DNA of 62,344 nt, counting the filler, from Dimargaris cristalligena (lineage: Eukaryota), in assembly GCA_003614675.1 (NCBI GenBank). It is 19 parts of 19 records of this genome, joined end to end, with 100 filler letters (N's around TTAATTAATTAA, not from the genome) between each part and the next. Parts side by side here need not be neighbours in the genome. Positions count along the whole stretch, not along the records: positions 49,430 to 52,588 come from ML004018.1; 18 more parts are not named here. The stretch is one strand, 5' to 3'. A program made the position numbers and the translations under genes. Shown here one piece after another: positions 1,699 to 62,344 of the stretch. Every line of letters starts with the position of its first letter. Positions within the stretch are counted from its first letter, which is position 1. The notes under the pieces were generated by a model. The model worked only from the letters and a program-made list of their open reading frames with translations, was not told the DNA's origin and ran no database searches.

Positions 1699-2228
1699 AT
1701 AGTGTTTAACCCAGCTGATAACCTGGTATTGGGCTTCAAAGCTGATGTGAAGTAGGCTAGTAAATTTGTCCCATTCATTTCAGAGTTGCCTTGGCTAGGT
1801 GGGATTGTATATTTGTGATTTGCTTTTAGGCAATAATAATCAGACAAATGGCCAGACAATATCAGCCCCAGTTAAAGTAGTGGACAATAACAAGCCCAAA
1901 CAGGAAGAGGGAAAAGAACAAAAGTGGCTATGCATAAGCTTTACTAAGAAATAACAGCACAAACATAGCTAGGAGATATTGATAATGATCCATGTGAAGC
2001 AAGCCAATGTAGGTTATATCAGTTTGTAGCTTACCTGAGCAGCACCACTATATAGTTGGGCAGGTTCTAGTTGTTGGATATTCTAATGTGCAACATATAT
2101 GCTACAGATGTATACAGATGATGGGGCTGTTACAGTCCTTATCACTTGACTAGTATGAAAATAAAATTCCAATTAATACTAAATATGGTTCCCATGTCAA
2201 ATAAGGTAAATACAGCAATGCATAGTGG

Positions 2229-2788
2229 TGTGGCACCTACACCACATCACATTTTCTTTCTCCCTCCTTCTCTCCATTTCCATTTCATTGGCCATATTTT
2301 ACAGAACCACATGCCACCAGCCCATTGATTGGTTTTTCCTCCTCACTGGCTATGTTTCACATAACTACCAGCCCACCATCCTATTGATTGGTCCCCCTGT
2401 TTATGCTAAGCCTTTTCATGTGCCAAGTCTAGTCTAATTGGTATATAACTCTATCACATGCATAAGTTCTCATGTTGATGACTAATCTATCATTCCTCTC
2501 TGATTCTCCCTATGTTTCCCCTCTGATGGAAAACTATAAATAAACCCCTTGTCTGTCCCCTTGAAAGGACCGACAACTTTTGCCCCTTACTTCCTAGACA
2601 TTGTCACCCAACTCCTTTGACCCCCTTGTAGAACACTAATACCACCTTGGCTTCAGGTGACTATTAGCTACTACTCAGTTTACTCTCTATTCTCCTATTC
2701 CTTGTACTTGGTAAAAAGTCCCTTTTTATTACCTTGGCTTCAGGTGCTAATTAGCCTTTCACCCAGTTTCATCTACTTTGGCACCTCA
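2229..2788 (+). mobile_element. LTR-like repeat family C, second copy, inverted relative to 1117-1698
   Basis: TG start and CA end, TATAAATAAA box near 2535, internal direct repeat ACCTTGGCTTCAGGTG at ~2644 and ~2731. Confidence 0.6.
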
Positions 2789-3163
2789 ATATTTTATTCT
2801 AAGTAATAATACACCATGTCACCCACAGGCTATTCCCATGATCACCAACATCCCAAGCCTTACTCTCTTATAGAGCAGTTATTTAGGCCAACCTCTTAGG
2901 CATCTTAGGCATAGTCTGGTTCCCTTCCACCTAGCTGGACTATACACAGCCCTCCCAGATCCACAGCCATGTCCATTATATATTTATACCACTATGTTGC
3001 TCACAGGTATTACTCAACCAGGGTTTCTTACTATCCTCCTTATTCTTCAGGCTACTGGGTCGGGTTCTTTCTTAACCATAAATTCTATATATATTTTGGA
3101 TACAGCACTAAGGCTAGTAGAGCACTAGTAATATATTACTAACATTAACAATTTTGTCCCCAC

Positions 3164-3219
3164 TGTAAAGAACTGAAATCAAATCCTTGAAAACTGAACT
3201 TTATTTGAAAAGATAGATG
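3164..3219 (-). mobile_element. Terminus of LTR-like family D at the contig end
   Basis: TGTAAAGAACTGAAATCAAATCCTTGAAAACTGAACTTTATTTGAAAAGAT is identical at 46017-46067 and similar, reversed, at 39624-39700. Strand inferred from AATAAA before the terminal TTTACA. Confidence 0.7.
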
Positions 3220-3319
3220 NNNNNNNNNNNNNNNNNNNNNNNNNNNNNNNNNNNNNNNNNNNNTTAATTAATTAANNNNNNNNNNNNNNNNNNNNNNNNN
3301 NNNNNNNNNNNNNNNNNNN
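3220..3319. other. Artificial 100-nt contig spacer (N-run, TTAATTAATTAA six-frame stop, N-run); first of 18 identical spacers
   Basis: The same spacer recurs every ~3.3 kb, and the contigs between spacers fall in length from 3219 to 3151 nt, as expected for length-sorted unplaced contigs. Confidence 0.98.
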
Positions 3320-5348
3320 AATAATAGAGAAAGGGAGAGAAGGTCCCAGAATATTGGATGACTAAGTAGAGGGAAAGGGAGGGGAGTTCCCAGATAATAA
3401 TATTAGTCATCACAAAGGATAGGTAATACTCAAGTAACCAATAAATTCAATGTGAAATAATAGAAGGGAAACAGAGAAAGCTATTTTTAACTGTACTTTG
3501 AACAGGGGTACAGTCCAGTCAAGGGCAGGGGTACATTCACTCATCAGGGACATACTTCCAATAAGTGCAAAAAATAGATAAAAAATAAAGGTAAAAATGT
3601 GGTAAATTTACCACAAATGGCTTCTTTGGCTGGCATTTTGGCAATCAGAGCTTTAGTTGTAGTATTAACCCCCAAATAAAGAGGTTGAAAGGTCTATTTT
3701 AAGTTATAGTAGGATAGTAATATATATATGTGTGTGTATGTGTGTGGTAGGGGGGAGTTTAATGTGTCCATTAGTTTAATAAAATTACTGGTTTAGTAGT
3801 TTTTTGGGAAAGCTGTGATCTCTTTAGCCTGTGGCTATGCTGGGTTAATCAGGTGATTAGCCACGATTAATATCAATGGAGTATCAACATTATCAAACGA
3901 TTTTGGTTGGAATTGGCAGGCAACTGTCCTTCACTTTATGCAAAAAGAAGTTGACACAATAAACACCCTTTACATGGTGTCAGAGTAAGAGTTGGTGAAA
4001 GAGTATAACAAGTAAGGGTATATCCATGTACCTCTATGGAATCCCATTTGGGAATCGTGAACTCGTGCAGGTCATTAGCATCTTTTGCAGCTGATGAAGA
4101 CATTTGGCTGGACTCCATAATGCTTAAATATAGAAATATTAGGGTGAAAATGGTGTCTGGTCAGGTCTGGAATGGAATGGAATGGAGTGGGGGGGGGAGG
4201 GGGGTCATAAACAAAGGCAATGCAGTGCATTAAGGTGGAAGGTAAGAATTAGTAGGTAGAAGTGCTATAATAAACATAATCTAGAGTAGGTCAATGGAGA
4301 GGGGCCACTCATGCTGCTCCACAATGCCAGTAATACAATATTGGTCAAGTGTGAATTATATATTTTACTAAACTGGGAATGACTCAGCTCGGTTTGTGCA
4401 TGGGCTCATTGTTGGTAACTCTAGATCATTTGGCACAATCATTTGTGGTTGGCTATAGCACAACTTTATCCCATCCATCCTGCTATTCTGTGTAGTTCCG
4501 GGTGACTCTACTTTTGACAGGCTAGGTTTAGGGAGCTGAAAAAGAGCCTTGATCTCCATCTCAGACTACTTCTACTCTGAAATAGAGGTCCCAACATGTC
4601 GGGCTTGGTGATGCTTGAGGATGTGGACTGGCTAGTTTCGGGGGTGCTGGAACCAGTGATGAATGTTGGGTATGGCTGTATGAAACAATATAATATAATA
4701 ATCAAGGTTTTTAAAATACTGGCGATAATATAGAAAGTTTATTAAAATGAAGAATTGCACCTAAATAATATTTGAACTTCAATGGATAGACGACTTGTTG
4801 GTTTTCTTTGCGGGATTCCAGCATTCTATATATGCGAATTCGGATTCTATGGGAATGCCATTAATCTCAGCAATGGTGTAAATGGTATCCGTTATAAGTG
4901 ATGTTGGCAAGATATAAGCAGGCTAGACAGAACTGTTGGATAAGCCATGAGCGGGAAATAATGAGATCGTATCGAATAATACCAACTAACTAATACTGGA
5001 CTGACAATTACAAAGAGCTGGAGATATAATCGACTGTTTTATTATTAGCTCGGTGGTTGTCGGTATTTATGCTACGATAAGAAGAGAAGTAATTACCGCT
5101 AGATTTCAATATCGGCGATTGTAACCGCGGGTTGGTCACAGACAATTGGAGTACGGTCAGTTATTGCATAACAAGTCTTTGAAATAGCAACACGGCCGAG
5201 GGTTGTAATCTTTTGTAAATCAGGTGAATTGGGGACGGGTATGAAAAGGTAAATGTGACTCAGATATAGCCCTTCCCCAAACGGGACACAATAGGACCAT
5301 AATTGGAGATTCCGGAATGGGATTCTGATTCAGACAAGCACAAATATA

Positions 5349-36342: not shown

Positions 36343-39300
36343 CATGGCAAAGGCTGATTTCACCGCACTGATAGTAAGACCCGCATCATGAAGATCTCGC
36401 AAGACAGCAACTACATCGTCCGCATGTTGATAGACCATTTTACGGATTCCTTGATGGACTTGTTGTGCTTCAGCCTTAGGCATATGGGTTTTGATAACAC
36501 CATCATCAATGAATACAGAAACACGATCCGGTAGATGTTTTATCAATACCTTCATCATGATTCTTTGGAATACGCCTACGCTGTTTGTCCATCCCATAGG
36601 GAGACGAGTCATGCGCATTAACCCAATGTTGGTATTGATGGCGAAAATATCATGATCACGAGGGTCAATAGGGATTTGGTCGTAACCGGAATAGAGATCG
36701 AATGTGCTCAACAAACAACAGCCAGTAAGGTCTTCGGCAATTTCATCAGCTACCGGTGGAATTCCGGCATTTCAAATAGTCACCGCATTAACTGGTTGAA
36801 AGTCTTGGATAAAACGGAGATTTTCCTTGTCCTTTTTGAGAATCGTAAACCAGCGACTGGCATAGGGTCCAATCGAGGGTTCAATAATTCCTGACTCTAG
36901 CCATACTCGTAACATTTGTTGAATCTTGTCAAATAAAGCACGAGGTACCGAGTAGGGTTGGAAGTTCTACGGCTCATGTGGTACAGTGGGTACTCGAATC
37001 GGTGGTTCTACTTCAGAGTGAAGAAGTCCTAAATGGTCTTGGTTAAATGCAAAGACAAATTCGACCTCACGCAAACGATTCAGAAAATATGCCACTTCAG
37101 TAGGGGTTAGTTCACCATCACCAATGGTTAACAGCCCTTCTGTTTCCGGGGTTAAATGAGTTCCCGGAGTGATATCCGTATCCAGTGAGGTACAGTTGGA
37201 TGTAGTAGCAAGCTGGAAATCATCGGGGATCGGTTTCACTGATGGATGGACCTTAGTGCCAACAGGTTTGTACTTAGTGGCCACCACAGATAACTGCATA
37301 CAGTTTACATGAGTTTCTGGGGTGTTATCCATGGAACTGCTCGGCATTTCAAAGGAATCAGTGATATTCCCTGTATGTATCACCAGATGTTTACGGGACC
37401 CAGTACTCGCCTTTTCGACAGTCCAGTCAACATGATGTAACCATGGAGTTCCAAGAATGGCAGTTCGATTTGGCAGATCAATGATAAGGAAATTCGCTTT
37501 CACTTCCACTTTTCCGGTAATTACGGGAACATTAGCATGGGCATAGCAAACTTTGATAGAATCATTGTTTACTCCATAGATGGCTGGTACAGTAGCTTGG
37601 ATGATGGCACTTCTCGGTCAGAGTTGCATAGCCAAGTCTTTTGTTAAGATGTTAGCCTGCGACCCAGGATCAATCAAAACGGTACATTGAATTGACCCAA
37701 TACTAGCCGGTATTTGTAAAGTCGGCATGCTATAAAATACAGCACCCTTAGCTTCCAAACCGGTTTCATGTGGCTCTGGTACCTGAGCATCCATGATGGT
37801 AGCTATTTCTGCAATGGCAGATGAGGGTTAAGTAACCACCGAGGTTGTGGTCACATACTCTCGATGACGAGTTAGTTGACTACAAAGGAAGTTCTGGGTA
37901 CAAGGAGAGATCGAAAGGTAGTCCATAAAGGACATTCCTAAATTATCGCGAGACATGTGTTTGATTACAGTCTCCTCCTTATTACGTTTATCGAGTTCTG
38001 ATCGCAAATGAAATTTCGACTTCGGACGGACTGGAGGGGCTGATAATTCCTCAGTTGGATCTGCCGGTGTTTCATCAAGTGTAACTACCTCATGCGTCTC
38101 ATCTGGATCCTCCATTCCATCATCGTCCTCATCAGTGTCAGGTGCCAGCTGGGACATTGGTAGAACCTGCTGTTGGTCTAACTCGACCAGTGGTGTAGGC
38201 TGTTGTACTACTGCCTGCGGAGCCTTATGCCGTCCATTAAGGGAATCACTCATTTGGGCAGTTGGGTTTCTGGTATCAATCGAGGTCTTAGCCCTTTTTC
38301 CTATGGCTTTAACACTCGCTTCTCCATACCCCATGGTCAGTACCTGAGGAACTCGTCGAACCAAAATACATAAACTGGTAATCCGAGGTTGTGGTTGATT
38401 AGCCTGTTCCTCTGCAGCTCGTTCACGATTAGCCTGTTCTTCAATCGCAACCTTCATACCACCACGCCCTAAACGAGATGCAATGTCAAGACCATTAGGC
38501 CATTGGATCCAGCCATTAACGATTTTAACCTGGTGATTTGCAATAGCCACTTGGAGACTCGAGCAGTCATTCTTGAAATGTCCAGTATCATCACAGAACA
38601 AACAATGACGGGGTCTAGTTGGGGTATTTTGGACCGGCACATTAGACTGGACAGCCTCGGAGAAGCTGTTTCATTTCTTCACGGAGACTATCCACTGCAT
38701 TAGGAGTCACAGTTGTCACTTGTTGCACATGGGCCTTCCAAACTTTCACACACTGGCTCTGGCATTGTGAATGATGATCATGGCCACTATCTTCTTCATC
38801 CTCAGTATCTGAGTCCGATGAGGATGAATCAGAATTAGAATCTGACTCGGAGCTTGAAGAGGCATAGCTCCTTTTGGATGCACCTTGATGCTGTGCATGG
38901 TTACAGGCCATTCGAAGGATACTCTCGTGCAGTTCCTTAAAGGATGGATGCGGCTCTGGTGAAAGATCATACACCACTCGGATGTAGCGTGAAGGTACCA
39001 TGCTGGAAAGGAGGTCAATCTTCTCCTCATCAGAGACCATCGGGGTCTGGTTCGCAGTAGCAGCAAACTGTAAGAGGAAGGAAACTAGGTTCTTGCTCTT
39101 TGGTTTCTTTTGTACCAATTTACGCAAGGCACGGCTGCGCTGGGTACCCGTTGAATACTCCTTTGTGTCCTCGGAGTCCAGAAGGTACCGCCGAATGTCT
39201 GCCCAAGAGTCACGGTGGGTGTACATATCGAGAAGAGCGTTTCACAGTCTCTTGGGGACATATTTCGTAACGTAGTTGAGGTACCGTCGCTCAGGGAAGT

Positions 39301-40934: not shown

Positions 40935-43900
40935 TATCAGAACATAGCAGGATTCTTTCAATCTTATCTCTATATTTAAACTCGTAAAGCCAACTCTTCT
41001 TCTTTAATTTTTTTTTTCGAAAAACGGTGACATAACCCCCAGCCATTCGACAATTCTATCTGAGGATTGCTAACCATAGCTCAATAACTAGGTTATCCAT
41101 CAATCAAAGTATGCCATAGCTATATTTTCTATACATAGACACCAATTATCCCATCTTATTCAACAGTTCTATCCAACATAATCCCAGCGAGTAGCTAACA
41201 ATATCCCGATTCCTAGTATCTAGTGTTTCACCATTTACTATTTCCTTATTCCTATATATAAACCCCATAGTTCCGGTAGGATTAGAAACAGCATGTTGTC
41301 AGTCGCAAGTAAATTCCGAAGTAACCTACTGATACCTTCAACTTCAACGTTTATTATCGTCAAGTTTGTTATTGGTTATTTCACATTTATTTTATCTAGA
41401 ACATCAATTATTACGCCCGGTCTATTCCATTATTTTTCTTTTAATAAAAATGTCTAAAATCCCTCGTTGGCCTTGCGATGGACCCGAACCTCCCGTTTAC
41501 AATACCGGCCTTTACCACCCATTTTGTAGTGCCAGGCCCTGCGGGCCCACCGGGTCTTGATACGATGCTAGTGTCTTGGTGGAATAACCCCTGCCATTCT
41601 TTAGGAACGTCAACCCCGCTCTACTCCATTATGCTCTGTGACTAGTGCACTTGAATTATAATTTTGTTTTCCCACTTACTTTATAATAGCATTGTGTTGT
41701 TTTTGATACATTATATTATTTGAAGTATTTTGGCAATACGTATCCTGAATTGGTATCTACAGAGCGGTGGAGACAATACCCTATTATATTTTTATGAACC
41801 CTTCAGAATGGGCATTTCATCAAGCCAGTCGATCTATTATTAGGTCCGTATTCATTGTCTATCTGGAATACTACTTACAGGATGATGTTGGAGAAGACCC
41901 CCCATGGTAATTAGCAGCGGGCACCACTCTTGATGCTTTAACCGTCCTTCACAACTGGCCTTTTGGTGGGGAAATTTATCGCCTCTTAATCTACATTTTT
42001 ATTAGGGGTAGGTCCATATGTTTACATTCAGACTCCCTGGAAGCGATTTCGTTGAAGAGGCGCCAAATTCCTCATAAAACGAGTTACATTTTTGTGAATC
42101 TTCATTAATCATGTATTCTCAATCCATATACCACTACTTTTGTATATTTTAAAGTGGTTTTAGTAGAATCCCCAGCAGAGCTTGCAAATACCCGCTTCCT
42201 ACAATAGGATATTCCCTTACTGATTACCAGCATTTCTAGTGCTTAATTGGGCATTTAATTATTATTTTTTGACACCTCTTTTCGCCTATTTCGCGTTTTG
42301 AGCCCTCGCCACTTGATTTAGCTATACATGGCTGTGCAGTAATGAAACCTGGAGATAATCCCAAATAGACATGGTAATTCACATTGGAAATTTAGGAAAA
42401 CTAACTCAGTTAGTGAATAAGCAGACATATAGCAAATGTACTAGTAAATAAATGATAGTAGGCGGACAAGATGGCCTTTCAAGGCCAATGGCAATAATCT
42501 AACCCATTGGGGAAAGTCTGGATTACTTGGTTTTTCACCTCGGGTTGACAACTTATCCCTATGTAGCCCACCGGGACATCTAGGCTTAAATGTATTAGGA
42601 AAGGCAGTCATGTAGCCATACTCGGGATTCAGCAACACTAGGTGCACTCCTCATTTGGTCGAAGTCTCGATTAGTATATAATACCCGCTGATGGATTGGG
42701 GAAACAATATAGCTGTGTTGTGGCCGGACCTGCTTAATCTCTAATAGCATATCCCGGCCAAACTATTTTTAGTTTAGAAAAGATGAAGAACACCANNNNN
42801 NNNNNNNNNNNNNNNNNNNNNNNNNNNNNNNNNNNNNNNTTAATTAATTAANNNNNNNNNNNNNNNNNNNNNNNNNNNNNNNNNNNNNNNNNNNNCAGGT
42901 GGTCCTACACCAATTATGAAACGATCTTGCTTGGGAATCTGCCAAATGTAGCACCAAGGCGGCGGAATACCATTATGGGATAATAGGGCAGCTCCCCTAC
43001 CACCCTGATATCAGGGTAATATATTTAGGGAGTATAAGTAAAACAAAGTACAGGGTGGAAATAGAACTTGATATTAAATATAATATATTCAAGCTGAGTT
43101 GATATTGGGTGGATTGCACTTTTCCCTCACCTCTTGAATTGAAAAAGGGAATTTGAATCCCAATATTAGTGGTGGAGACCCCTACCCTGTGGAAAAAGCA
43201 ACAGGTTACACAGCTGTGCAACTTTTGGGGTTCATCAACAGGATTGGCTCTCATATATTTCTTTTCAGAGGCATACCACCTTTACCACTTCTGTTAAAAT
43301 GAGTATTATATAGGAACATACATTTGTAGTGCCATCTGGAGGTTGGCACTTATCCCCAGACTATGGACAGCCAGTCATCATCATCAGGGGGCGGAATATA
43401 CCATAATATACAATGATGGTATCATTCCCAGCATTTTCACACTGAAATTACTGCCTATACTGTGACATACACAAAAAAAATATATCTTTATACTCATGGT
43501 TTGCATTTAAAAGTCTGACCTATTTTTTAGTGGATTCCTTGTCATTCCATCTGGTTCCATTCTTGACCCTTTTTCTATGTCCCTTTCCTTGTATCCAGCA
43601 GCCCCTAAGGCCCATAGGATAGTTACATAAGTAACCAGTGAATTCCCACTTGTTTGGAGGACAATCATTGCTCATTTAAATTTTGAAATTATTTTTGCTA
43701 TTCCTTAAACTTGACCATGACTTTTATTGATTACTAATTATTAACTCCCTTGTTTTTAATATTTCTCAATAAGCTTTGATACTCCTCATTTATCCCCATC
43801 CCCCATCTGATTTGCTAACCATCTACCCCTCTGAAACCCCAACATGATGACACCCAACTCTGCCCCTGTCTCATCTAACTTCATGAACCTCCCATCTTCA

Positions 43901-44188
43901 ACAACCAGGGAGCTGGCCACTGCAACTTTAGGCCATGCTGATAAGGAGGCCACTGCCTCCTTGTGAGACCCAAAATCCACTGGCAATAGGCCAGACCTCC
44001 CAGGTAGTACACATTACATGGACCACTGTTGACTAAATGACCTAGTATTGGTTGACAGTCCCTATATTGTATCCTGCAATATAAACCCATCCAACCAGAC
44101 ACCCAATAACCAACCTCATTCTTTCAGCTCTACACTCCCTTCCCCTCTCTTTATCCTCCTTCCTACCCCCCTACTTGACTAAATTACC

Positions 44189-46016
44189 ATGAAGCTCACC
44201 ACTTTGATCTTTACTCTCACCATTGCTGCTTTACAATTTTCATGTATGGTGGCCAGCCCCACAGTGTATAGCTTAAATACTGGGATGCATTCTTTCACCA
44301 ATCTACCCATTGAGTTGCAGTGTATTATTGCCCAAAAGCTGGATGGTTATGTACACCAGCAATTCTTTCAGGTGAACAAGCATTATCATGAACTGGTAGA
44401 AAAATCTGCCCATTTTATTGTAAGTATAGAGTTAATGTGACCAATGACAGGTAAAACTCTAAGGCGGATTTTATTATTGTACAAATGATTATTATGGACT
44501 GCTGGTAGAGGTTTTTGTCTCATTATATCACCTGTCCATTTAGACCATCTTGATACTAACTAAGGCAGTCAGTGGAAAGGCAGATAAGGTGGAACCTGGG
44601 AAAAAGGCCTGCTTCCAAGATCCCAGTGCCCAATAACTATCAGCTAATAATATTATATGCACCTTTCCTTGATCCTGCAGATCAATACACCTTGACAGTC
44701 AGATAGATTGATGTATTTGATTCAGCAGTATATCTACTCCTACATTGGAAACTTACCTGGCAACAAGCACAATAGGGACACAACCACCAATTATGACACT
44801 GAACAGGGGGCCCGGGATATTCATGCCAACTGGATGGCTCTCTTTAAGCATGAAACCATCATAAACCTTACTGATATCACCAATTATCATCAAGGTTACA
44901 ATCCTATAATTAGGATCAGGTATGATATGTCAGATATCCCTTTAATCAAGACTGGCTCATCAAGTAGTGTACTACTAGTAGACAACCTAGATGATAAGCA
45001 ACTTTACACAGAGTTTCCTATTCTTCAACTGGCTGATAGTCAAACTATCCCTAAATTTACCAGATACTTATCCACTCTATTTGTAAGTGATTTAGAGAAA
45101 GTGGTAGGATGGGCATTTTTGTGAATCCTAGATCACAGGTTCACCAGGGCCGATACAGATGATCTTCCCTCACACATGTCCTTAGTTGAAGAATATTTCC
45201 TTGGCACACCTACCCTGGAACCCTCGGATTTGACTGCCTATCTCAAGTGTCTTGACAACCCAACCCAAGTGGCCTCAACTGACCACCTCAGTTTTGAGAG
45301 GTTCATCCCATCATTAAATGATAGTTGGAATTTATTTAATGACAATGAAAAGATCAAGATGTTCCTGAGCCAATTCACAATGGACTCCTTGAGGTCCTCT
45401 GATGCTGAGGAACACCTTGGCAACCTCACCCTGAAAGTCCCATTCTATAATAGCCACATTTTGGAAACCACTCTTGCTCACATTATCTGGTGTCTACTCC
45501 AGAAAGTGACTGCAGCTGTTCCCAGTCATCCATCCCAGTCTCCTTTTAACAAGGTCAAGGAATTCTTTAAGTATTCACTTGATGAGGTTTTTAAACTGGA
45601 TACTATGGATTTATACTTCAACCATGCTATTGTTGCCCTTATTCACACTTGCTCTTACCACTCAATCACTCACAATGCTAGCTCAAGATGGGGAGGATCT
45701 GTCCACTACAGAGTATATTAACATTATAGCTGCATTCTTTGACCAATATCTGGAATAGGATCTGGGAGTAGTATCAGTGGATGAGGCATTGGATAACATT
45801 TATGCACATAGCTACTTTTCTATTATGAAGTGGTGACCCAACTATCTCTATTGTTTGGGTGTATATGGACCTGACAAAGCCCATGATTACCTACTCAATC
45901 ATTGGCCAATGTTAGATAGCATCAGTGAGCATGCCTCAACTGATCTGAACTTAAGATGGGTAACTCCTTCCTTCGAGCAAGAGGATAAGCCTGCTGTCAT
46001 GATAAGGTGTAGGGGT
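44189..46016 (+). pseudogene. Secreted protein with an N-terminal F-box-like motif, pseudogenised
   Basis: Signal peptide MKLTTLIFTLTIAALQFSCMVA-SP, then FTNLPIELQCIIAQKLD...FFQVNKHYHELV; GTAAGT donor at 44420; ORFs 44708-45124 and 45176-45721 are in frame across a TGA; further breaks downstream. Confidence 0.6.
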
Positions 46017-46067
46017 TGTAAAGAACTGAAATCAAATCCTTGAAAACTGAACTTTATTTGAAAAGAT
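46017..46067 (-). mobile_element. Family D LTR-like terminus
   Basis: Identical to 3164-3214. Confidence 0.7.
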
Positions 46068-49429: not shown

Positions 49430-49891
49430 TTGACAAATTATGCATTATCATTTATCGATAAATGAGATTGTGATTATGATTGTGATCGTAGAGTGTTGAA
49501 TGAATTTGCAATGTGATTGTGATTATAAGAATGATTGTGATTGATGAATTTGCAAATTTATATTGTGATTGTGATTGTGAATGTCGAATAAATTTGATAA
49601 ATTATGCATTATGATTTATCGATAAATGAGATTAAGATTGTGATCGTATAATGTAATATTATTTATCGATAAATATTATTGTGATTGGGATTGATTTTGT
49701 TTGTGATTGAATGAATTTGCAATGTGATAGTGATTGTTGAATGTAAACTCCATTTTAATATTCAATAATAGACACTCCATATTTTAGCTTCCAATTTTCA
49801 AAAGTCCGCTATCGATAAACCTTTATTTTGTTGGTCAGTGACGAAAAACAATATTTTTTCGTTTCCTGTTTTTAAAAATAGTTATCGATAA
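49430..49891. repeat. Degenerate repeat array with GATTGT units and five TATCGATA palindromes
   Basis: TTTATCGATAAA at 49451, 49615 and 49662; TATCGATA at 49810 and 49883; ~55-nt direct repeat at 49430 and 49594; TGAATGAATTTGCAATGTGAT twice. Confidence 0.85.
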
Positions 49892-50004
49892 AACTGTTTG
49901 TTGTAGTGCAAAAATCACAAACTATTGGGAGTTGTATAAAACCCAGTTCCATTGGCATGCAGACGTAATCGTCTCACATTCATTGAAAATCGGAAATTAG
50001 AAGC

Positions 50005-50682
50005 ATGTCGGAATCCCAAAGTATCGAAAGGAAAAATTTTAATAATTTACTCACGAATGAACAAGTTGATGCTTTGCAAAGTTATTACTCGACAGTTGAA
50101 AAAATGCCTCGAAAAGCGGCAAAGACCGAATTATCAAAATTCCATGGAATTGAGCCGGTAGTTCTAACAAAATGGTTTCAATCAAGGAGGAACAAGGACA
50201 AGGCGGCATTGAAGAAACAAGCAATTATAAACGAGAAGAATGATGATCAAAACCAAAAAGAAAAGAAAAATGTTAAAATCAACGACACCATGACTAACCA
50301 AGAAGATGAAGGAGAGAAAAATTTGAATAGCCAGGACTTAATCATGAAAGCAACAAATGATGATGTTGCACTCAAACTGGTTCCTGATCAAATCGATTCT
50401 GTCAAAGATACGCAACTTGCAACAAACGACATAAAAATCAACGACCAGAAGGAATCTACAAGCAAGAATACAACCAAAGTTTCGAAATCCTCTTCCAAGA
50501 ATTTCAACAAAGGGGAGTCAGTCAAAAACGTTTCTGATAAAGTCGAACCTCTCCAAAATGAACAAGTTGCAACGAAGGACGACAAGAAGAAGAAGAAGAA
50601 TAACGACCAGAAACAATCTTCAAGCAAGAAATCAACAACCAAAGTTCCGAAATCCGCTTCCAGAAATTCCAAGGGTGTTTAA
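50005..50682 (+). CDS. Homeodomain protein with a K/N/S-rich, internally duplicated tail
   Basis: LTNEQVDALQSYY...P......ELS...G........KWFQSRRNKDK matches the homeodomain helix pattern; intronless. Confidence 0.85.
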   Translation: MSESQSIERKNFNNLLTNEQVDALQSYYSTVEKMPRKAAKTELSKFHGIEPVVLTKWFQSRRNKDKAALKKQAIINEKNDDQNQKEKKNVKINDTMTNQEDEGEKNLNSQDLIMKATNDDVALKLVPDQIDSVKDTQLATNDIKINDQKESTSKNTTKVSKSSSKNFNKGESVKNVSDKVEPLQNEQVATKDDKKKKKNNDQKQSSSKKSTTKVPKSASRNSKGV

Positions 50683-50793
50683 CTATTTATGATTATTTTT
50701 TGTTCGACTTTTACTTCAAAGTCCGGTTAAAACCCTTTACGAAGAGCAAGGGACAGGTTTTTTTCTGGATGACCACAGAAATCGAAATGCGAA

Positions 50794-51838
50794 TTATTTT
50801 TTTCCTGTAACTCGTAACTGGTTTAACAGACTTACACGTGTAGATTCGCTCAATTTGTTCATTTGATTACGAATAATATCTCTGTTTTTTTCACGTTCAT
50901 TTTGCAAATTTTCATTGTGTGACGCTCCCATATATCTTATTCGATCATTGAATTCTGAATTACTACATTTGCGTTGTGTCGAACCCGATCCGCAAGAATC
51001 CCACATTGTCCTGAAACTATTCAATTCTTGCAAGGATACTGCTGTATCAGTCATCCTTTTATTTCTTTTGCTGTCCAATTCTTCATCATAGTTCACTCCA
51101 TTTGTTATTAAACCGAAACCATTGAGAACCGATTGTGATTCTCCATTCTTACCACTCCTAATGAACATAATATCACCGTCAGAAACAATTGATGCACAAC
51201 CATTCGATGAATCGAATCCACTGAAAGGCGTTATATTTTGAATATCTTGTCCAACAACTTTTTTTTTCGTTTCTTTCAAACAAATTATTGAATAATTCTG
51301 GAGTACACTTTTTTGAAAATTGCGCGATTACAGGTTGTTCCAAATCATCATATTTTGTTGATGTCGGTCGATTGTTCAACATGTCTGAAAGGACTTGTTC
51401 TGCGTCAAAAACATCATCTATCACGCAATTGTCTGTTGTTATTTGTTTACTAAAATCAGGTTTTCCTTTTTTCCTCTCGCTTCTGCCTGAATTTGAGGAT
51501 TTTGTTTGTGATAAATGAGATGATGGTATTTGATTGTTAAAATGACCATTTTCCTGGCGAACACTGGCCTCAAGTTTGACGCGATCTTCAAGCTCTTTTT
51601 GGCTTTGAAGATCTTGATTCAACATTTCCTTACATATCATCTTCAAGTAGGTATAGCATTTGTTCAATGTGTGAAAGTCCTTACCAGGCAACTGCGGAGC
51701 TGACCGGTCAGGATGCAACAAAAGACTTTTTCTTTGATAAGCCTTTTGGATCTGTCGAATATCCCTACATTCTCGTGGAATACCAAGAAAATCGTAGGGG
51801 TTCACGTTTAACACTGAAGGCCTAGAACCTGAAATCAT
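50794..51838 (-). CDS. J-domain (DnaJ) protein of NCLDV-like type, split by a frameshift at an A9 run (~51259-51267)
   Basis: NPYDFLG...IQKAYQRKSLLLHPDR J-domain and a later FNNLFE motif; removing one A fuses ORFs 51179-51838 and 50794-51279 (FERNEKK-VVGQDIQ). Confidence 0.75.
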
Positions 51839-51919
51839 TATGAGAACTTATTGCACTTTAATAAATCATACTGATTTTTCTTGAAACAGTCAGACGCAAT
51901 GTTATTGTTATTGTCATAT

Positions 51920-52345
51920 TTAACAGTTGAACCAGCTGTCTGCATAAACAAGCCTGATTGGAATGTTTGCTGACAAACTTGTTGGTTGGAGTGTGCCGAA
52001 TGTACCATTAGTGATTGTGAGATTTGGACAGTTTTGGGTCGACACGATCGTCAAAAGCTGCCCATATTGAGGCTGAGAAGGCATGACAATTGTCAATTGT
52101 GTGAAAGCTGTACTACTTTGGATTATGGCAATAGTGCAATCTATCGGAATATTAAGCGTGCCGAGATCGAAGGGTTGGGAAAGCGCGATACCAGAGACGA
52201 TAAGATTCGTGGAGATGTTAGCTGATTGTGTCAAAATGTTTCCAAATGAATAGTTTACAAATTCACTTTGCGCACTTTTGAGAATCATCAAAGATGAACT
52301 CTTTTCGGGTTCTTGTCCGACAACAATGTCACTTTCTTCATTCAT
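51920..52345 (-). CDS. Hypothetical beta-strand-rich protein (141 aa), possibly virion-associated
   Basis: Clean ATG-to-TAA ORF; LTIVMPSQPQYGQLLTIVST...IRLVY...W pattern recalls phage/viral fibre-type modules (inference). Confidence 0.65.
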   Translation of the reverse strand: MNEESDIVVGQEPEKSSSLMILKSAQSEFVNYSFGNILTQSANISTNLIVSGIALSQPFDLGTLNIPIDCTIAIIQSSTAFTQLTIVMPSQPQYGQLLTIVSTQNCPNLTITNGTFGTLQPTSLSANIPIRLVYADSWFNC

Positions 52346-52418
52346 CGTTAAATAGATTTCTAATAAGTTTCTAATTTGTTTTCAATAATATTTTCGTAAT
52401 TTATCATGCTGATTATAC

Positions 52419-52588
52419 TTAATCATCATCTAAAGGCCAGCACGTGGGCTTGCAACAACCTTTTGATATAGTTGCTTGATACATTATCGAACAAAAATCT
52501 TCATTGTTTGAAGTACATCTCTTGTGTCCCCGATTTAGTAGGTGGCCAAATTCGTGTTCGATCAAATAATTTTTGTACGTATCGAGGT
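52419..52588 (-). CDS. DUF3152-like zincin metalloprotease, C-terminal fragment (not in the ORF track)
   Basis: Manual translation LDTYKNYLIEHEFGHLLNRGHKRCTSNNEDFCSIMYQATISKGCCKPTCWPLDDD* fits the Y..Y.I.HE.GH....GH..C......(P/S)(V/I)M.Q.T....C.P..WP pattern. Confidence 0.8.
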
Positions 52589-53217: not shown

Positions 53218-53821
53218 AGCCCACTTAATGGTTGAAAATTTAAAATAGAACTTTCTTAATTTCACTTAGTAATATTTTGGGACCTTAATATTGGTTCTGG
53301 GCTGTTTCCCTTTAGAGAATGAATCTTAGCATTAATTCTCTGACTATTCTTTATTATATGAAATGGTTTTTCAAGGTTAAATATAATTGATAAAACTATA
53401 AGTCCCCCAATCAGAAGCAATGCTTCTCATATTCAGAGCTGTACTACCAAACATAATATAACATCAAAGATGCTTTAAAGAATGTTCTACTAAAATAGTT
53501 TTCGCGGAATACCAGCTATTTCCTAGTTCGATTAGCTTTTCACTCCTTATCACAGTTCATCGAAGCATATTGCTACATGCACTCGTTCAGTCATAAAACC
53601 TGACCATAATAAGATCACTAGGTTTCGGGTCTGATAATTGAAACTAAAAGGTTTTTTTTTTTTATTAAAACTAGCTTTCACTACGTCTAAAAGACTTGCT
53701 TCAAATTATCAACTTGCTGACCCATTATGCAAGAGGTACGTTGTTAGAGTTTTTACTCCTTCAACTGCTTATAGACTTATTAATTCAGGATCTTTTCACT
53801 AGTATACTACTTTCTTTTCAA

Positions 53822-54995
53822 CGCAAAAACGAAAATTATTCGTCTTCGGACTATATCTTTTATTTACTTTTAAATAAAGTTAATAAATTAGTATGTAGTC
53901 TCTGAGGTATAATATAAAAATATTTTACCTGCTAGTTAGTTAAGAAATAATTCATCAAATATGAATTTAAATCTAGTACTTTCCAGCATTTTACTAATTA
54001 TATGAATGACAATTATTTGTCATTGGGACCGTTTTAAAAAATTTTTCACAAAAATAAAGAAAAATATAAAAAATAATAAAAAAAAAATAACTCATTTTTT
54101 TAAAAATAAGTAAATTATATATTTGGGAAGGGAGTTAATTAATAAAGTTTTTTTTTCAAAACTTCAAATAGGCAAAAACAAAAAGAAATAATCAATTCTA
54201 AAACTTTATAGATATTTCTGTATAAGAAACTAACCAACCTCTAAATAATTTTTTAGTTCTTATACAATTAAGAAAGTTAGTTTTATTAGCACCTTCCGCC
54301 CTGCATGTATAATTTAAACTTTCATACATAGTAATTAATTCCAAACTATCAGGATCATAAAAATATACGGGCTTATATCTATGCTTCGAAGCTATAATAC
54401 TCTTTAATTTATCCTCTTCAGATAATTTAATACCTTTATTAACAGGTATTTTACCTAAATTCTTTCCTATACAGGATAAACTCATTTTTTCCCTACTTTC
54501 AAGAGTATGAGAAACTCCAAACCTAGACCAACCAGCTTTTTTACTAAAATTAAAAGAAGGTTGTAATAAATCAATGTAATATTGTTCTGCAGATATAACA
54601 ATATTAGTTATCTCAGCTTTAGTACTATTCAATGGAATTTCTATCCATTTTAATATATATAAAGTAAAATTATCTTTTCCATATTTTTTAAAAGCATTTT
54701 GAAGATATTTATTAGAATCAACTCCAAAAAGATGATTCTTAAATCTAACATGAGGTTCAATAGTACTACCAACATAACAATTTTTTGAATTGTTAAGATG
54801 AAACACATATATACAAGGTTTATTAATAAGTTTAAGTTCTTTTACCATAGCAGTTATAGAATCTAGATTATGTAAATTAAAATACATTTTTTCGATTAAA
54901 ATATTTAAGTTTAAAGAAACACAAATATTATATTTAATCATTTTTTTTATTATTTTTATAATTCTTCTAAAATTTTGCGAAATAAATTAATATTT
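53822..54995 (-). other. Group I intron in rnl domain I carrying a homing endonuclease ORF
   Basis: Core P AATGCTGGAAA, Q AACTAGCAGG, R TCAGAGACTACA and S AAGATATAGTCC at ~53845-53995; interrupts GAGGGAAC(G)/TTGAAAAG. Boundaries uncertain by 1-2 nt. Confidence 0.88.
54198..54941 (-). CDS. Intron-encoded GIY-YIG homing endonuclease
   Basis: PCIYVF...CYVGST...RFKNH...LQNAFKKYGKDNF...EQYYID...P.FN catalytic domain; HTLESREKMS (NUMOD3-like) and KPVYFYD (NUMOD1-like). Confidence 0.92.
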   Translation of the reverse strand: MIKYNICVSLNLNILIEKMYFNLHNLDSITAMVKELKLINKPCIYVFHLNNSKNCYVGSTIEPHVRFKNHLFGVDSNKYLQNAFKKYGKDNFTLYILKWIEIPLNSTKAEITNIVISAEQYYIDLLQPSFNFSKKAGWSRFGVSHTLESREKMSLSCIGKNLGKIPVNKGIKLSEEDKLKSIIASKHRYKPVYFYDPDSLELITMYESLNYTCRAEGANKTNFLNCIRTKKLFRGWLVSYTEISIKF

Positions 54996-57645
54996 CGTTC
55001 CCTCACGGTACTTATACACTATCGCTTAATATATTATATTTAGCCTTAGAGGATGGTTCCCCTATATTCAAACAAATTTTCTTTCATTTTACTTTTTTTT
55101 TATTTCATTTTATAAAATTAAATATATATATACTGGACTTTAACCATCTTTGGTTTATTATTTAAAAAATAAATTATTATTATATAATACCAATAATTCT
55201 TTTTAAAACAATAACTATGTTAAAAAAAGATTTTTTTTGGAATAAATTAAGATCCTATGGATCTGGGCTAATCTACTTTCGCTCACCACTACTTATAGAA
55301 TCTCGGTTGATTTCTTTTCCTCGGAGTAATAAGATGTTTCAGTTTCTCCGGTAATTTTTTTTTAGACCTTAAAATTTAATAAAAAAAAATTATACAAATC
55401 TTTTTTATTAGTCTAGAACAGTTTTAACTGAAGGAATTTCCTAGATCATTATTCTTTTACTAGGATTAAGGTTATATTTACCTCCTTAATAATATATTAG
55501 CTAGTCATTTTTAATAAGTCCTTTTTTCCTTAATTATATATTACATATCAAATATAGATATTTTTATATATCTAAAATATTAAAAATTTATCCCTCTTCA
55601 TAAAAAAAATAATAATAAAAATACTATAATAAATTATTTAATTAAAATTCTTTAAGACCTTTTTAGCAATAATTTTAATCAAACTAAAAAAAACCCTTGT
55701 TCGAACAAATTAAAAATCAACTATCAAATTAAAAAAAATTAGAAAATCAAAATAAATATTTATTTTAAAAAACACATATATATGTGTCTTTCGATACAAA
55801 TTTAATTAAATTTTTTTTTTATAAATATTTAATTTTATATANNNNNNNNNNNNNNNNNNNNNNNNNNNNNNNNNNNNNNNNNNNNTTAATTAATTAANNN
55901 NNNNNNNNNNNNNNNNNNNNNNNNNNNNNNNNNNNNNNNNNGGGCGTTATAACTCTATATTTAATACATCATAATCACACTTAGTCCGGGCCAATAATTG
56001 GCTGAGTGCCAATGTTGTATTAATGGATTCCGCCGAGGCGAGTGATGCGCACTCGAGTCAGTACGCATACCGGCCCCATCTTACTGGCGGATGTATAATT
56101 ACCGCGGATAACTGCAGACTGCATCAATAATTGTCCGTATGTCAGCTGGACGTGGTTGTATTTCTGTATAGCGACAGGGGGCTGTCGAATGTTAAATGCA
56201 GTGTAAATGGGTCAGTTTTTAAGTCGCTGATTCCAATAGGCTTACCACATTGCCTCTACCCAGCTAGAGCCCATCATGCCTATTGGATTACCTACCACCC
56301 ACCCTTCCCACTACCCAACCAGTCGCATTCGCTGTCCGAGTGGTTTTCCCAGCTTGTATAGATTTCCCTAAAATCAGTTTGTGAGCTATCCAATCGACCT
56401 GCACCGTGCTTACGCCAGGGTCTACGTCAACCGGATTGCCTCCAAGTGTTTGCTGGTTGAAGCGCCGATACGGAGGGCTCTAAAGGTGAAATCAGCCTAA
56501 AGAAGCTGTACGCCAGCATGCGAATATGGGTACTTCAATAGCTTTCCTCAAGCACAAGGATGGCGGACTCGACAATTCAGCAATCTAATCTGTACCATGC
56601 GGCTATTTATTGAAGGGGCATATTATACATTTCTATACGACATATTCACGGGTTTAGCCATCGAGTGAATCAAGGAATCGCCATTAATTTATTTGTAATG
56701 AGGGGGGAGGAGTGCCTTGGGCCAACTATTTGTCCGGCCCTTCTTAAGCCCCGTAGAGTCGCCAGGCAAGCCTAGACGAAATAATCACCCCTGGATCGGC
56801 TATTCACTTTTGACTTGGCTCCACAGATGATAAGCCCGTCCAAGTCCAGTTGAAATGGTGGATGATGTGCCGGCTGTCTACCCGTTTTCTCACGAAACCT
56901 ACGGGGGTGCCGCATAGGGGAGCTACGAAAAACGGATGAACCTTAAGCATGGGCTGAGGCAATGCCGGAATAGTATAGTTTCGCCCGCGGGTTACGGGAC
57001 TTTGGCCTGCCTCGCCGACCAAAAGGCCGTGTAAACCAACCAGATGTGGCTTGGATTTACCTGAACATTCGAATTAGACTCCGCAGCCACTTCCTGGCAA
57101 TACCCGTTCTTCAGGAATAGTTTTGCCTAGCCAGCCCGAGTGCAAATCGGACCATTGGCCAATCCCCGGGTAAAGAGGCCCGTGCAGTGGGGCGGAAGCA
57201 ATGCCCCTTGGTATGTGGAGTAGCACACTGTTCCATCAGCCTGTGCCTGACTGCTCCCCGATTACCCCAAATGGACAACGAGTGTGTGAAATGGTGCGAC
57301 TAGATCCTCGCCAATATCTCTAGGTAGTCCACCCAATGGATTATTCAATAGTGGATTGGTTTGGTATGTCAGGTAGATCTTGCGCGGCCCTCTGTGCATT
57401 TGAATTGGACGGAGAGAGGGTCCAATTAAATTATATGCCTGGGTTGTCACCCAAAGTAATTCTATTCTGACACTTCCCGCTTCTATTATTTTGAAGCAGC
57501 GATTCAAATTGGTATTTATATCCCTCCCAGGGACTTCTGCCTCGTTTGACTCAGTCCCCCCTATATACAATCTAACCCATTTTCCTGGTTCCTACTGACC
57601 TTTTAATCCTCCCCCTCACTCAATATATCAACGAACCCTTGTAGT

Positions 57646-59093: not shown

Positions 59094-60289
59094 NNNNNNN
59101 NNNNNNNNNNNNNNNNNNNNNNNNNNNNNNNNNNNNNTTAATTAATTAANNNNNNNNNNNNNNNNNNNNNNNNNNNNNNNNNNNNNNNNNNNNTACGCGA
59201 ATTCCGAAGGCCGCTGGCAATAGGCCGGATGCCCCGGGTAGTACACATTCATTACCAAGTCAATGTTTTCACAAATCAGTTGTATCCACAACTTAATGCC
59301 AAACCCCGAATATGTTCACCAGAGCCACCAGCATGGTTCGCCGTCCTACTTGACCTCACTGGTGTATTATGTGCACGCATGTCAGTCCTTGTTTGGGGGT
59401 TTGCTTCAATTTGCCGCGCTCACCTCACCACTGGGCTTCTTCACTTGGCATTAACTAGACTGGAGGCTCAATGTAACTCGCACTCTGTATTTCCAACAAT
59501 CGGTACAGTATCGCCATTTTTATATCTATATTATGTAATTAGGGTGGGAAGAAGCTAGCTTCAGATGATTAATTGGGAGAAGTTCATTCAGGCTGTATAG
59601 CGAAAAATCTATTGGATGAGGCCAATATTACTGGTTAAAAGATATTCTCACATATATTCGTCCATACACGTATTATGTAAAACCTTATACAGCTGGTTTG
59701 AATTTCTTCCAATTGTTAAACCAGTCTAGAGTGATGCACGTCCTTAATGCCTCGGAGGGTATATAAGGGTGGTCCATCCCTGGTGAATGGGCTCAACCAT
59801 GGAACGGCTGGCCTGCTTGTACTTCATACAATCAGCTGGTATAGCTTTTATAGAAATAGGACATGTCGATTAGCCCACAGTACTACTTTAAAGACAGCCA
59901 AAGACCCCGCCACCGTACCCTACACGTCATGGCAAAAGCAGCGCACCCGGAATGTGGGCCGAGGGCCTTGCCGTGGACCAATAGTGGCGGAGTATAATAT
60001 CAGAAGGGGAGGCACACCTTTAGTGGATGAATGTGTGTCACACACGTTCTATTTGGCTGTAGATGATTCATCTTTTTTTGCCTACTCTACCACCACCGTG
60101 GCAATGATGTGTGGAGTGGACTATATCGATGGTCGACTAATAAAGCTTGGCCGTACCATTCTTGGCTGCCTGTTTCGACAACATCCAGCTTCTTTTGTGT
60201 TGGCCCTGCCGTAGATTACCTTAGCTTCGTTGTTTCTGTTACTATTCTATAGGTCCTACTTTTCGTGAATTCGCCCTCCGCTTGAAACC

Positions 60290-62344
60290 ATGGCCGACCA
60301 AGCTGGCTTTACCGGGTTTTCCTTCCCCAAAGAGGAAGAAAAGATCCAAGCCTACTGGCGGGAGATCGACGCTTTCCGCACCTCCGTTAAACTGTCCGAG
60401 GGTCGCAAACCCTTCACCTTTTACGACGGCCCGCCCTTCGCCACGGGTCTGCCCCACTACGGCCACTTGTTGGCCGGCACCATCAAAGACGTGGTGACCC
60501 GGTTCGCTCACCAGACCGGCCACTATGTCGAGCGCCGCTTCGGCTGGGATTGCCATGGCCTCCCCGTCGAGCATGAGATCGACAAGAAACTCCACATCAC
60601 CGGCCGGGACGACGTGATGGCCATGGGTATCGACAAGTACAACGCCGAGTGCCGTAGCATTGTCATGCGTTATGCCAATGAATGGCGCTCTACCGTGGAG
60701 CGTCTCGGTCGTTGGATCGACTTTGACAATGACTACAAGACCCTGGACACCTCCTTCATGGAGAGTGTCTGGTGGGCCTTTGGCCAGCTCTATGGCAAGG
60801 GCAAGGTCTACCGCGGCGTGCGCGTCATGCCCTTCTCCACCGGCTGTAACACCCCCCTGTCCAACTTCGAGGCCACCCAGAACTACAAGGATGTGGTGGA
60901 CCCCGCTGTGACGGTGGCCTTCCCCCTGGTGTCCGACCCCACTGTGCAGCTGCTGGCCTGGACCACTACCCCGTGGACCCTGCCCAGTAACTTGGCCCTC
61001 TGTGTCAACCCGGACTTTGAGTACATCAAGATCCGCGACGGCGAGACGGGCCAGCTCTACGTTTTGCTCGAGAAGCGCCTGGATGTTCTGTACAAGAACC
61101 CCAAGAAGGCCAAGTTCGAAATCCTGGATCGCTTCTCCGGTAGCTCGATGCTGGGCTGGGAGTACATCCCTCTCTTCGACTACTTCGTGGAGGAATTCCA
61201 GGGACGGGCCTTCAAGGTGCTCAACGACCGCTAGGTCACCGACGAAAGTGGTACCGGTATCGTCCACCAGGCCCCTGGCTTCGGTGAGGACGATCACCGC
61301 TGCTGTACCGAAGCCGGCGTGATTAGTCCCGACGGTTTCCTCCCCTGCCCCGTCAATGAGTCCGGTATTATGACCAGCGAGGTTACCGACTTCGCCGGCC
61401 TCTACATCAAGGACGCTGATAAGGAAATCCAGAAGCACCTTAAGCGCGTTAACCGCCTGGTGCGTCAAACCCAAATGTCCCATAGCTACCCCTTCTGCTG
61501 GCGGTCCGACACCCCTCTCGTGTACAAGGCCGTGCCCTCCTGGTTTGTACGGGTCCGGGAAATTACCGACCGTCTCCTGGCCAACAACCGCACCTCCCGC
61601 TGGGTGCCCGAATTCGTGCAGGAGAAGCGCTTCGGTAACTGGCTGGCTGCCGCCCGCGACTGGAACATCTCCCGGAACCGCTACTGGGGTACTCCCATCC
61701 CCCTGTGGGTGAGCGACGACTACGAGGAAGTGGTCTGCGTAGGCTCGGTGGCCGAGCTGGAGGAACTGACCGGCGTCACCGGCCTGACCGATATCCATCG
61801 CGACAAGATCGATCACCTCACCATTCCTTCCCGCACCGGCCGCGGGGTTCTGCGTCGTATCGAAGAGGTCTTTGACTGTTGGTTCGAGTCCGGCAGCATG
61901 CCCTACGCCCAGAAGCACTACCCCTTTGAGAACCGCGAGCTGTTCGAGAGCACCTTCCCGGCTGATTTCGTCTCCGAGGGTATTGATCAGACCCGTGGTT
62001 GGTTCTACACTCTGCTGGTCCTGTCCACGCACTTGTTTGACTGCGCCCCCTACAAGAACCTGATCGCCAGTGGGTTGGTCCTGGCCGCTGACGGCAAGAA
62101 GATGAGCAAGCGCCTCAAGAACTACCCCGACCCCACCCTGGTCATTGACAAGTACGGTGCCGACGCTCTGCGCATGTATCTGATCAACTCCCCCGTGGTC
62201 CGGGCCGAAACCCTCAAATTCAAGGAAGAGGGCGTCAAGGAGGTGCTCTCCCGGGTGTTCCTGCCCTGGTACAACTCCTTCCGCTTCTTCCAGACCCAGG
62301 TCGCTGTCCTGCACGCCGAGTCGGGCATTTCCTTCGAGTACAAC
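60290..62344 (+). CDS. ILS1: Cytosolic isoleucyl-tRNA synthetase, 3'-truncated by the window, with one in-frame TAG at 61232-61234
   Basis: DGPPFATGLPHYGH, GWDCHGLP, WTTTPWTLPSN, then in the same frame after the TAG: GTGIVHQAPGFGEDD, DWNISRNRYWGTPIP, EGIDQTRGWF, DGKKMSKR; uniform GC3 bias on both sides. Confidence 0.95.

Follow-up and report, generated by a model that had tools for sequence, protein, structure and literature searches.

A foreign, gene-dense contig with a split J-domain gene in the Dimargaris cristalligena assembly: a co-sequenced compact eukaryote or a giant virus?

Introduction

Does a short, gene-dense contig in the genome assembly of Dimargaris cristalligena (GCA_003614675.1) belong to this fungus, to a virus, or to another organism sequenced alongside it? 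The question is raised by positions 49430-52588 (ML004018.1) of a window of 62,344 bases, the window being the whole stretch of DNA that was analyzed. This contig carries a homeodomain gene, a J-domain gene, an open reading frame (ORF) of no known family and the end of a metzincin-like gene, and the first-pass annotation had read it as a fragment of an endogenous or co-sequenced giant virus. Our analysis revealed that the contig is a real piece of genome, which is foreign to the main organism of the assembly. Its source is taken here, with moderate confidence, to be a second, co-sequenced eukaryote with a small and intron-poor genome, probably fungus-like, and a giant virus is weighed below as the less probable source. 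The split J gene, the small family to which it belongs and a multi-copy satellite with the palindrome TTTATCGATAAA are new here.

Composition and coding density

The window joins 19 contigs of 3151-3219 nt each, separated by linkers of the form N44-TTAATTAATTAA-N44, which are evidently size-sorted small contigs from one assembly. Since these contigs are unrelated, context across the linkers carries no meaning, and the feature under study is exactly one contig of 3159 nt. Its GC content is 0.350 and its observed/expected (o/e) CpG ratio is 1.04, while the CpG o/e is 0.07-0.87 in 16 nuclear-like contigs and 0.93 and 0.78 in two AT-rich, mitochondrion-like contigs. The GC content at third codon positions (GC3) is 0.386, compared with 0.682 in six ORFs from other contigs of the window, and the codon-usage correlation with these six ORFs is r = -0.03. 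Coding strands are rich in A, with an AT skew of +0.19 across the plus-strand gene and -0.13 across those on the minus strand. This composition is matched by none of the 18 other contigs. The A-rich codon usage and the retained CpGs recorded at first pass were thus borne out, as was the view that the contig is unlike both the nuclear and the mitochondrial contigs. GC content, CpG o/e, GC3 and codon usage set it apart from the remainder of the window, and the differences in GC3, codon usage and CpG o/e mark it as foreign to the main organism.

Five coding ORFs were found, which make up four genes. The genes are separated by spacers of 111, 81 and 73 nt, no intron was found, and about 90% of 50005-52588 is coding. 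The earlier description of four intronless ORFs 70-110 nt apart holds for the number of genes, the absence of introns and, with spacers of 73-111 nt, the spacing, but the ORFs number five. High coding density without introns is a feature by which giant viruses are recognized, yet it is not exclusive to viruses. When the spacers were folded and compared with shuffled sequences, no hairpin signal was obtained (z-scores from -0.35 to +1.47).

Occurrence in sequencing runs and a second variant

The contig was traced in public sequencing runs from three studies. Four samples of one organism (one study) hold 0.78-0.94 of the contig words, one of three runs of another organism (second study) holds 0.72, and a freshwater metagenome (third study) holds 0.06; the two other runs of the second study hold next to none of the sampled words, which is no proof of absence. 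No RNA run was listed among the runs with the contig. The exact contig sequence has a word depth of about 630-720 in run X1, about 60-180 in run X3 and 2.5-6 in run X5, in which 1 of 30 bins is without cover, a gap that carries no weight. One contig of 210 nt from the freshwater metagenome is identical to it (depth 2.7), and a Logan contig from run X1 reaches about 1 kb past its right end.

A second, collinear variant was also detected, with coding parts 82-90% identical to those of the contig and with the spacers replaced. In X1 its word depth is about 330-400, in X3 about 3500-3630, and the ratio of the exact sequence to the variant is about 717:330 in X1 and about 60-180:3500 in X3. In the J gene, 19 of 38 differences between the variants fall on third codon positions and 6 of 38 on second positions (p = 0.035, the 38 being drawn from the 40 best-supported of 263 rows). 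Because the contig recurs in five runs of two studies and in the freshwater metagenome, and because a second collinear variant exists, it is a real piece of genome and no artefact. An assembly chimera was rejected on the presence of the same sequence in independent runs.

The split J-domain gene and its family

The J-domain gene lies on the minus strand at 50794-51838 and is read in two frames, an N-terminal ORF of 219 aa with the HPD motif (51838-51179, minus strand) and a C-terminal ORF of 161 aa (51279-50794, minus strand). The 219-aa ORF matches the Pfam family DnaJ (PF00226, E-value (E) 3.1e-9, 37.3 bits against a cut-off of 27.8), with LLLHPDR present, and the 161-aa ORF has no Pfam family above cut-off. 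An exhaustive search by HMMER, started from the 219-aa ORF, obtained 46 proteins at E<=1e-3, the best of which are 349-404 aa long and were matched to residue ~190 with 35-48% identity. The 161-aa ORF lines up with the C-terminal halves of these relatives, including the blocks ASIVSDG..MFV and EF..RM...LS..TR..L, so that the two ORFs are parts of one gene; a collinear full-length fit to the family, whose members are about 350 aa long, is obtained only when both frames are read together. The shift between the frames falls at or close to a stretch of nine A's (about 51261-51269). At 51200-51270 the second variant has 68 letters and the window 69, and since the variant is one base shorter, its frames would join. 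Either a recent lesion or an error of assembly may be behind the frame break in the contig.

The family, as defined here by P0001-P0007, P0009, P0048-P0053 and the protein encoded at 2184-3401 of the metagenome locus L001, has an N-terminal J domain followed by five conserved blocks (LNKCYxYLKTLC, DNxIIG.D.FD...MM..RPTST.Y, FN..F and the two blocks named above, of which the last is C-terminal and helical), and the contig ORFs align to all of them. A search of 5.8 billion clusters with a profile of seven members obtained 13 proteins at E<=1e-5, and profile comparison linked distant members of 265-340 aa to the family (99.5% probability across 277 columns). Nearly all members come from metagenome or run assemblies, some of them on long contigs, such as P0003, P0022 and P0006 on contigs of 147, 150 and 372 kb, and nearly all are full-length uninterrupted ORFs. 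Only one of 30 looked-up proteins is from a named organism, the chytrid Rhizophlyctis rosea; this sole named member, KAJ3030987.1, is annotated as hypothetical and lies on a contig of 26 kb. A word-index homologue search with the 219-aa ORF found nothing; in GTDB genomes, nothing was found with the closer family alignment (A2), and a second alignment (A4) obtained only J domains of bacterial DnaJ. Judged from their sequences, these proteins of about 350 aa are a conserved, unnamed family found almost only in metagenomes.

The HPD tripeptide is lost in several members and kept in the contig copy. Eight proteins (P0003, P0012, P0049-P0053 and L001 2184-3401) have F-x-F-P at the C-terminus (FSFP, FAFP or FKFP), an end that we take to resemble the DEF site, a kinase docking motif. 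The contig copy differs from the family in lacking this tail and in being split by a frameshift. With its HPD intact, the J protein of the contig should stimulate Hsp70, which it would bring to its clients, and the conserved, family-specific C-terminal half would be a candidate client-binding or targeting part.

A related metagenome locus

Among the metagenome contigs of the Joint Genome Institute (JGI), one related locus was found, L001, with a length of 4865 nt, the only relative whose neighbouring genes were read. Its member of the J family has 405 aa, its genes are intron-free and its spacers are 105-200 nt long. The neighbouring genes encode an AlkB-like 2-oxoglutarate (2OG) oxygenase, a Ser/Thr-rich protein with a signal peptide and a hydrophobic C-terminal end, an Erv1/ALR sulfhydryl oxidase (membrane segment at the N-terminus, CxxC at the C-terminus) and a thioredoxin reductase. 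The reductase scored 410-433 bits against five chains, which we take to be fungal, 374-383 bits against a second group, presumably plant or amoebal, and <300 bits against a third group, presumably bacterial. The oxidase scored 78-94 bits against cellular ALR/Erv1 and 25-28 bits against chains named R596. The GC3 of L001 is 0.385 and its codon usage correlates with that of the contig (r = 0.73). In addition, the octamer TATCGATA occurs three times in the 4.9 kb of L001 (0.07 expected), always between genes, while none was found in about 65 kb of four IMG/VR loci. On their common GC3, codon usage and octamer, the contig and L001 seem to represent one kind of genome, and L001 resembles a fungus-like cell more than a virus. 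The oxidase, the J gene and the reductase stand side by side at 1538-4507 of L001, and this part may be a redox/folding gene cluster.

The satellite and the palindromic motifs

The left ~330 nt of the contig (49430-49760) is a satellite-like array (repeat families D1-D7, inverted repeats I1-I4) with units of ~45-165 nt, in which TTTATCGATAAATGAGATTGTGATT-type and TTGAATGAATTTGCAATGTGATTGTGATT-type blocks are mixed. Three exact TTTATCGATAAA palindromes lie inside this array, and at <=1 mismatch all four copies in the window belong to the contig (expected 0.42). In three runs, the summed word depth of the first two bins, which hold the repeat, is 12-36x the median of the remaining bins, a sum that is not equal to copy number; the sequencing runs also contain many alternative joints between satellite units. 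The raised depth in all three runs shows that the satellite is part of the same genome and multi-copy. It may be the point where the assembly broke at the left end.

Five copies of the octamer TATCGATA were counted in the contig, every one of them upstream of the homeodomain gene, compared with a single copy in the other 18 contigs. Two of the five lie at 49810-49817 and 49884-49891 (195 and 121 nt before the homeodomain ATG). The octamer is absent from the 73-nt and 81-nt spacers and is not set before every gene, which is a better fit to the site of a cellular factor than to a viral promoter. In Drosophila the same octamer is the DNA replication-related element (DRE), a site for DREF/BEAF-32. 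The octamer is identical, palindromic and intergenic in Drosophila and in the contig, whereas the copies of the contig are partly embedded in a satellite array. By comparison with TATCGATA as the Drosophila DRE, the intergenic TTTATCGATAAA palindromes are putative sites of a dimeric factor. The octamer stands in the abstract of PMC4244634, and among the literature matches listed for it, none was on a giant virus or on a fungus-wide motif. A word TTCAAA(A)GTCCG was seen by eye upstream of the homeodomain gene (49800-49812) and just past its stop codon (50718-50729), perhaps by chance.

Search for viral relatives

None of MCP, PolB, A32 ATPase, VLTF3 and D5 primase-helicase was found on the contig when its five ORFs were searched against Pfam, PHROGs and NCBIfam. 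Only Homeodomain, DnaJ and DUF3152 exceeded the cut-offs, in agreement with the earlier remark that no hallmark gene is in view, and PHROGs and NCBIfam gave weak matches at the level of the J domain only. When IMG/VR was scanned with every protein, with two family alignments and with the repeat, no family-level relative was obtained; these scans need exact short peptide patterns, and distant relatives can escape them. With an alignment of two distant J members, four viral contigs were obtained from IMG/VR, two of which are GVMAGs (genomes of giant viruses assembled from metagenomes). Two of the four loci encode ordinary DnaJ-type proteins and two match securely in the J domain only, and profile comparisons with the IMG/VR J proteins cover 53, 75 and 152 columns and are weak beyond the J domain. 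A phage collection gave matches neither for the 141-aa ORF nor for the contig.

When a model of the J family with a mean predicted local distance difference test (pLDDT) of 62 was compared with BFVD by Foldseek, template modelling (TM) scores were 0.14-0.17 and driven by the J domain, and 13 of the 20 best matches have giant-virus names. Stand-alone J proteins are indeed common in Nucleocytoviricota, where they had been placed at first pass. The J proteins of giant viruses (Tetraselmis virus 1, Aureococcus anophagefferens virus, CroV, ChoanoV1, klosneuviruses, and L002 and L005 of IMG/VR) share the N-terminal J domain with the contig protein and, with its family, a length of 220-400 aa and a poorly structured remainder, but the likeness is secure for the J domain only (hhalign, 53-152 columns). 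For homeobox genes, which had likewise been placed in Nucleocytoviricota, the evidence is narrower: a 'putative homeobox protein' is named for mimivirus in a single passage, and no viral homeobox is described in the literature obtained on homeodomains and Nucleocytoviricota.

Giant viruses of zoosporic fungi (Mycodnaviridae) are described in PMC13533422, some with about 50-fold excess coverage and two of them in one fungal isolate. As described there, they resemble the contig as gene-dense, low-GC and intron-poor contigs in fungal assemblies, with a mosaic of fungal, bacterial and orphan genes and sometimes excess coverage; their definition is based on MCP and further core genes, and none of these was found on the contig.

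Origin of the contig

The second eukaryote from which, in the reading we favour with moderate confidence, the contig comes would be a parasite, a co-inhabitant or a carry-over sequenced alongside the fungus. For a cellular source we count the J family, which was not found in IMG/VR and has one member in a chytrid, the gene types of L001, the homeobox (homeobox genes are common in cells) and the octamer, which is not set before each gene. Several points weigh against it. Spacers of 73-111 nt, ~90% coding sequence and no intron are rare in cellular eukaryotes and usual in giant viruses, and no cell marker (rRNA, tRNA, ribosomal protein or intron) was found on the contig. The J family occurs in just one named cellular proteome and as full-length ORFs in metagenome catalogues and on contigs of 147-372 kb, a distribution that suits a viral family no less well. 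Word depths of 600-3600 in two runs, taken as absolute values, and the shifting variant ratio would suit replicating viruses. In the ESM Atlas, one J-family member has three Nucleocytoviricota clusters as neighbours (0.89-0.91, in a search that excluded PF00226 clusters and so removed most cellular J proteins), and the 141-aa ORF has phage clusters (0.94); both are leads only. Finally, the oxidase, the reductase and the J protein of L001 could be a viral folding module made of fungal-host genes.

A giant virus (Nucleocytoviricota), free or integrated and infecting either the fungus of the assembly or a cohabiting organism, is possible, and we consider it the less probable source. It would have captured a homeobox regulator and would carry a viral J co-chaperone, a structural ORFan and a bacterial-type protease. 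The gene density, the lack of introns and the AT-rich spacers are in line with such a virus, as are the mixture of eukaryotic-type, bacterial-type and orphan genes, the frequency of stand-alone J proteins of 220-400 aa in these viruses and the ESM Atlas neighbours, which are giant-virus clusters. The same applies to the mimivirus 'putative homeobox protein' of that single passage and to the known giant viruses of zoosporic fungi (PMC13533422). Also in its favour are the patchiness of the J family with one chytrid homologue, the uninterrupted ORFs throughout this family and the long contigs that carry some members, as well as the high word depth, taken as an absolute value, and the variant ratio shifting between runs. 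However, the contig has no hallmark gene, IMG/VR holds no family-level relative (the four loci match the J domain only), the neighbours in L001 are of cellular type, no spacer folds above shuffles, the octamer is not set before each gene, and the BFVD matches have TM scores of only 0.14-0.17 on a model with a pLDDT of 62. Tentatively, one may think of an undescribed giant-virus lineage associated with an early-diverging fungus, with a homeobox regulator, a private J family that current viral catalogues lack and at least two co-occurring strains at shifting ratios, which would also occur in freshwater. The claim of a giant-virus fragment is thus neither confirmed nor refuted: the contig is foreign to the other contigs, as had been supposed, but a virus has found no direct support.

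A large mobile element of another kind, or a different eukaryotic DNA virus, at high copy number (for instance a polinton-like virus, a virophage or some other large double-stranded DNA virus) could explain the compact genes, several related variants per sample, the high word depth and the multi-copy end repeat. Against this, no integrase, capsid, packaging ATPase or polymerase was found with Pfam and PHROGs, nothing was found in IMG/VR or the phage collection, and a homeobox, a J protein and the fungal-type neighbourhood of L001 would be atypical cargo; we regard such an element as improbable. That the contig belongs to the main fungus itself, for instance to an accessory chromosome or to an island of genes acquired by transfer, is very unlikely. 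It is present in all four samples of one organism, but its codon usage (r = -0.03), its GC3 (0.39 compared with 0.68), the lack of CpG depletion and the lack of introns all speak otherwise, and the identical sequence occurs in a run of another organism at a depth of 2.5-6, with next to none in the two sister runs (no proof of absence). A bacterial or phage origin was rejected because of the homeodomain with WFQSRR, the gene neighbourhood of L001, which is of eukaryotic type, and the lack of any phage match.

If the source is cellular, as we favour, this assembly, along with metagenomes from freshwater and soil, hides a second, very compact eukaryote that has a palindromic motif like the DRE, and the contig is a warning against annotating such sequences as genes of the fungus. 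If it is viral, the recently recognized giant viruses of fungi gain a new lineage and a repertoire with a homeobox and a private J family, and this family would be a marker of viruses that present catalogues miss. Under either reading, the ~350-aa J family deserves a name.

The homeodomain gene, the 141-aa ORF and the metzincin fragment

The homeodomain ORF (50005-50682, plus strand, 225 aa) matches Pfam PF00046 (E 1e-6, 28.9 bits against a cut-off of 22.9). The homeodomain is N-terminal and atypical, with WFQSRRNK, and is followed by a K/N/S-rich tail. The tail contains a duplication of ~70 nt (50440-50672, copies 162-165 nt apart and 86-87% identical, families D6 and D8), which encodes NDQK.S.SK..TKV.KS.S. 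The nearest solved chains are ISL-1 (1bw5) and Lhx4 (5hod), with E of only 0.004-0.0075. To these LIM-class homeodomains 54 residues align, including WFQ.RR.K, while the contig protein has one extra residue in the first loop, Ser for the Asn of WFQNRR/WFQNKR and, unlike the LIM class, no LIM domain. The protein is predicted to be a DNA-binding regulator, with an altered recognition helix and specificity.

The 141-aa ORF (51920-52345, minus strand) is rich in T, S, I, N and Q and belongs to no known family: no match was found in Pfam (no family above cut-off), PHROGs, NCBIfam, IMG/VR patterns or the phage collection. For this ORF and for the homeodomain protein, the search for relatives covered the family libraries, patterns in IMG/VR and the collection of phages. 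The region of the ORF has ~87% nucleotide identity in the second variant, and the identical 210 nt of the freshwater metagenome contig fall within it. Its AlphaFold2 model has a pLDDT of 33.8.

At the right end, 55 aa and the stop codon of a metzincin-like C-terminal end (52419-52588, minus strand) are open at the contig end, and the N-terminal three quarters of the domain lie beyond it. The fragment matches Pfam PF11350 (DUF3152, E 7.1e-6, 26.2 bits against a cut-off of 25.1) at profile positions 137-176 of 206, and Reprolysin_5 with E 0.025. Among solved structures there were weak matches to meprin (E ~1), and a word-index search for homologues of the 55-aa piece among longer proteins found nothing. 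The sequence HEFGHLLNRGH is followed by a Cys-rich tail with SIMY and six Cys in the last 35 residues. The contig fragment thus shares HExxHxxxxxH with DUF3152 and other metzincins and has in SIMY a likeness to the Met-turn, whereas the Gly at the eighth position of HExxHxxGxxH is Asn and the tail is Cys-rich. The zinc site, the likely Met-turn and the six Cys suggest a secreted enzyme, so the protein would be a secreted, Cys-rich metzincin protease. DUF3152 is mainly actinobacterial. Its reported presence in giant viruses was not substantiated, since the literature obtained on DUF3152 held nothing of the kind and the term led to Mycobacterium tuberculosis adhesins.

Other contigs of the window

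Genes for a class I aminoacyl-tRNA synthetase, a cation-efflux transporter, a response-regulator receiver and an M3 peptidase were found on other contigs of the window. They are of eukaryotic type, and on the sequences alone a fungal source of the assembly is plausible. Two AT-rich contigs carry pieces of mitochondrial large-subunit (LSU) rRNA, tRNAs and a GIY-YIG ORF. The LSU rRNA pieces at 53512-53711 and 54996-55504 (minus strand) lie on either side of the 247-aa GIY-YIG ORF (54198-54941), which looks like an intron-borne homing endonuclease. The CpG o/e is 0.12 at 1-3219 and 0.07 at 42896-46067, with GpC near normal, and 0.23-0.39 in several further non-coding contigs; such extreme CpG loss in repeats of the main genome suggests methylation-driven mutation or mutation like repeat-induced point mutation (RIP). 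At 36967-39241, three minus-strand ORFs follow one another, and in one of them, of 280 aa, a CX2CX4HX4C zinc knuckle was read by eye. The three resemble the gag and protease of a retroelement; the 216-aa ORF, the only one of the three tested, has no Pfam family. The gene for the class I aminoacyl-tRNA synthetase (60269-62344), of isoleucyl type by eye, is in two frames that meet at 61234/61235, which is either a short intron or a frameshift.

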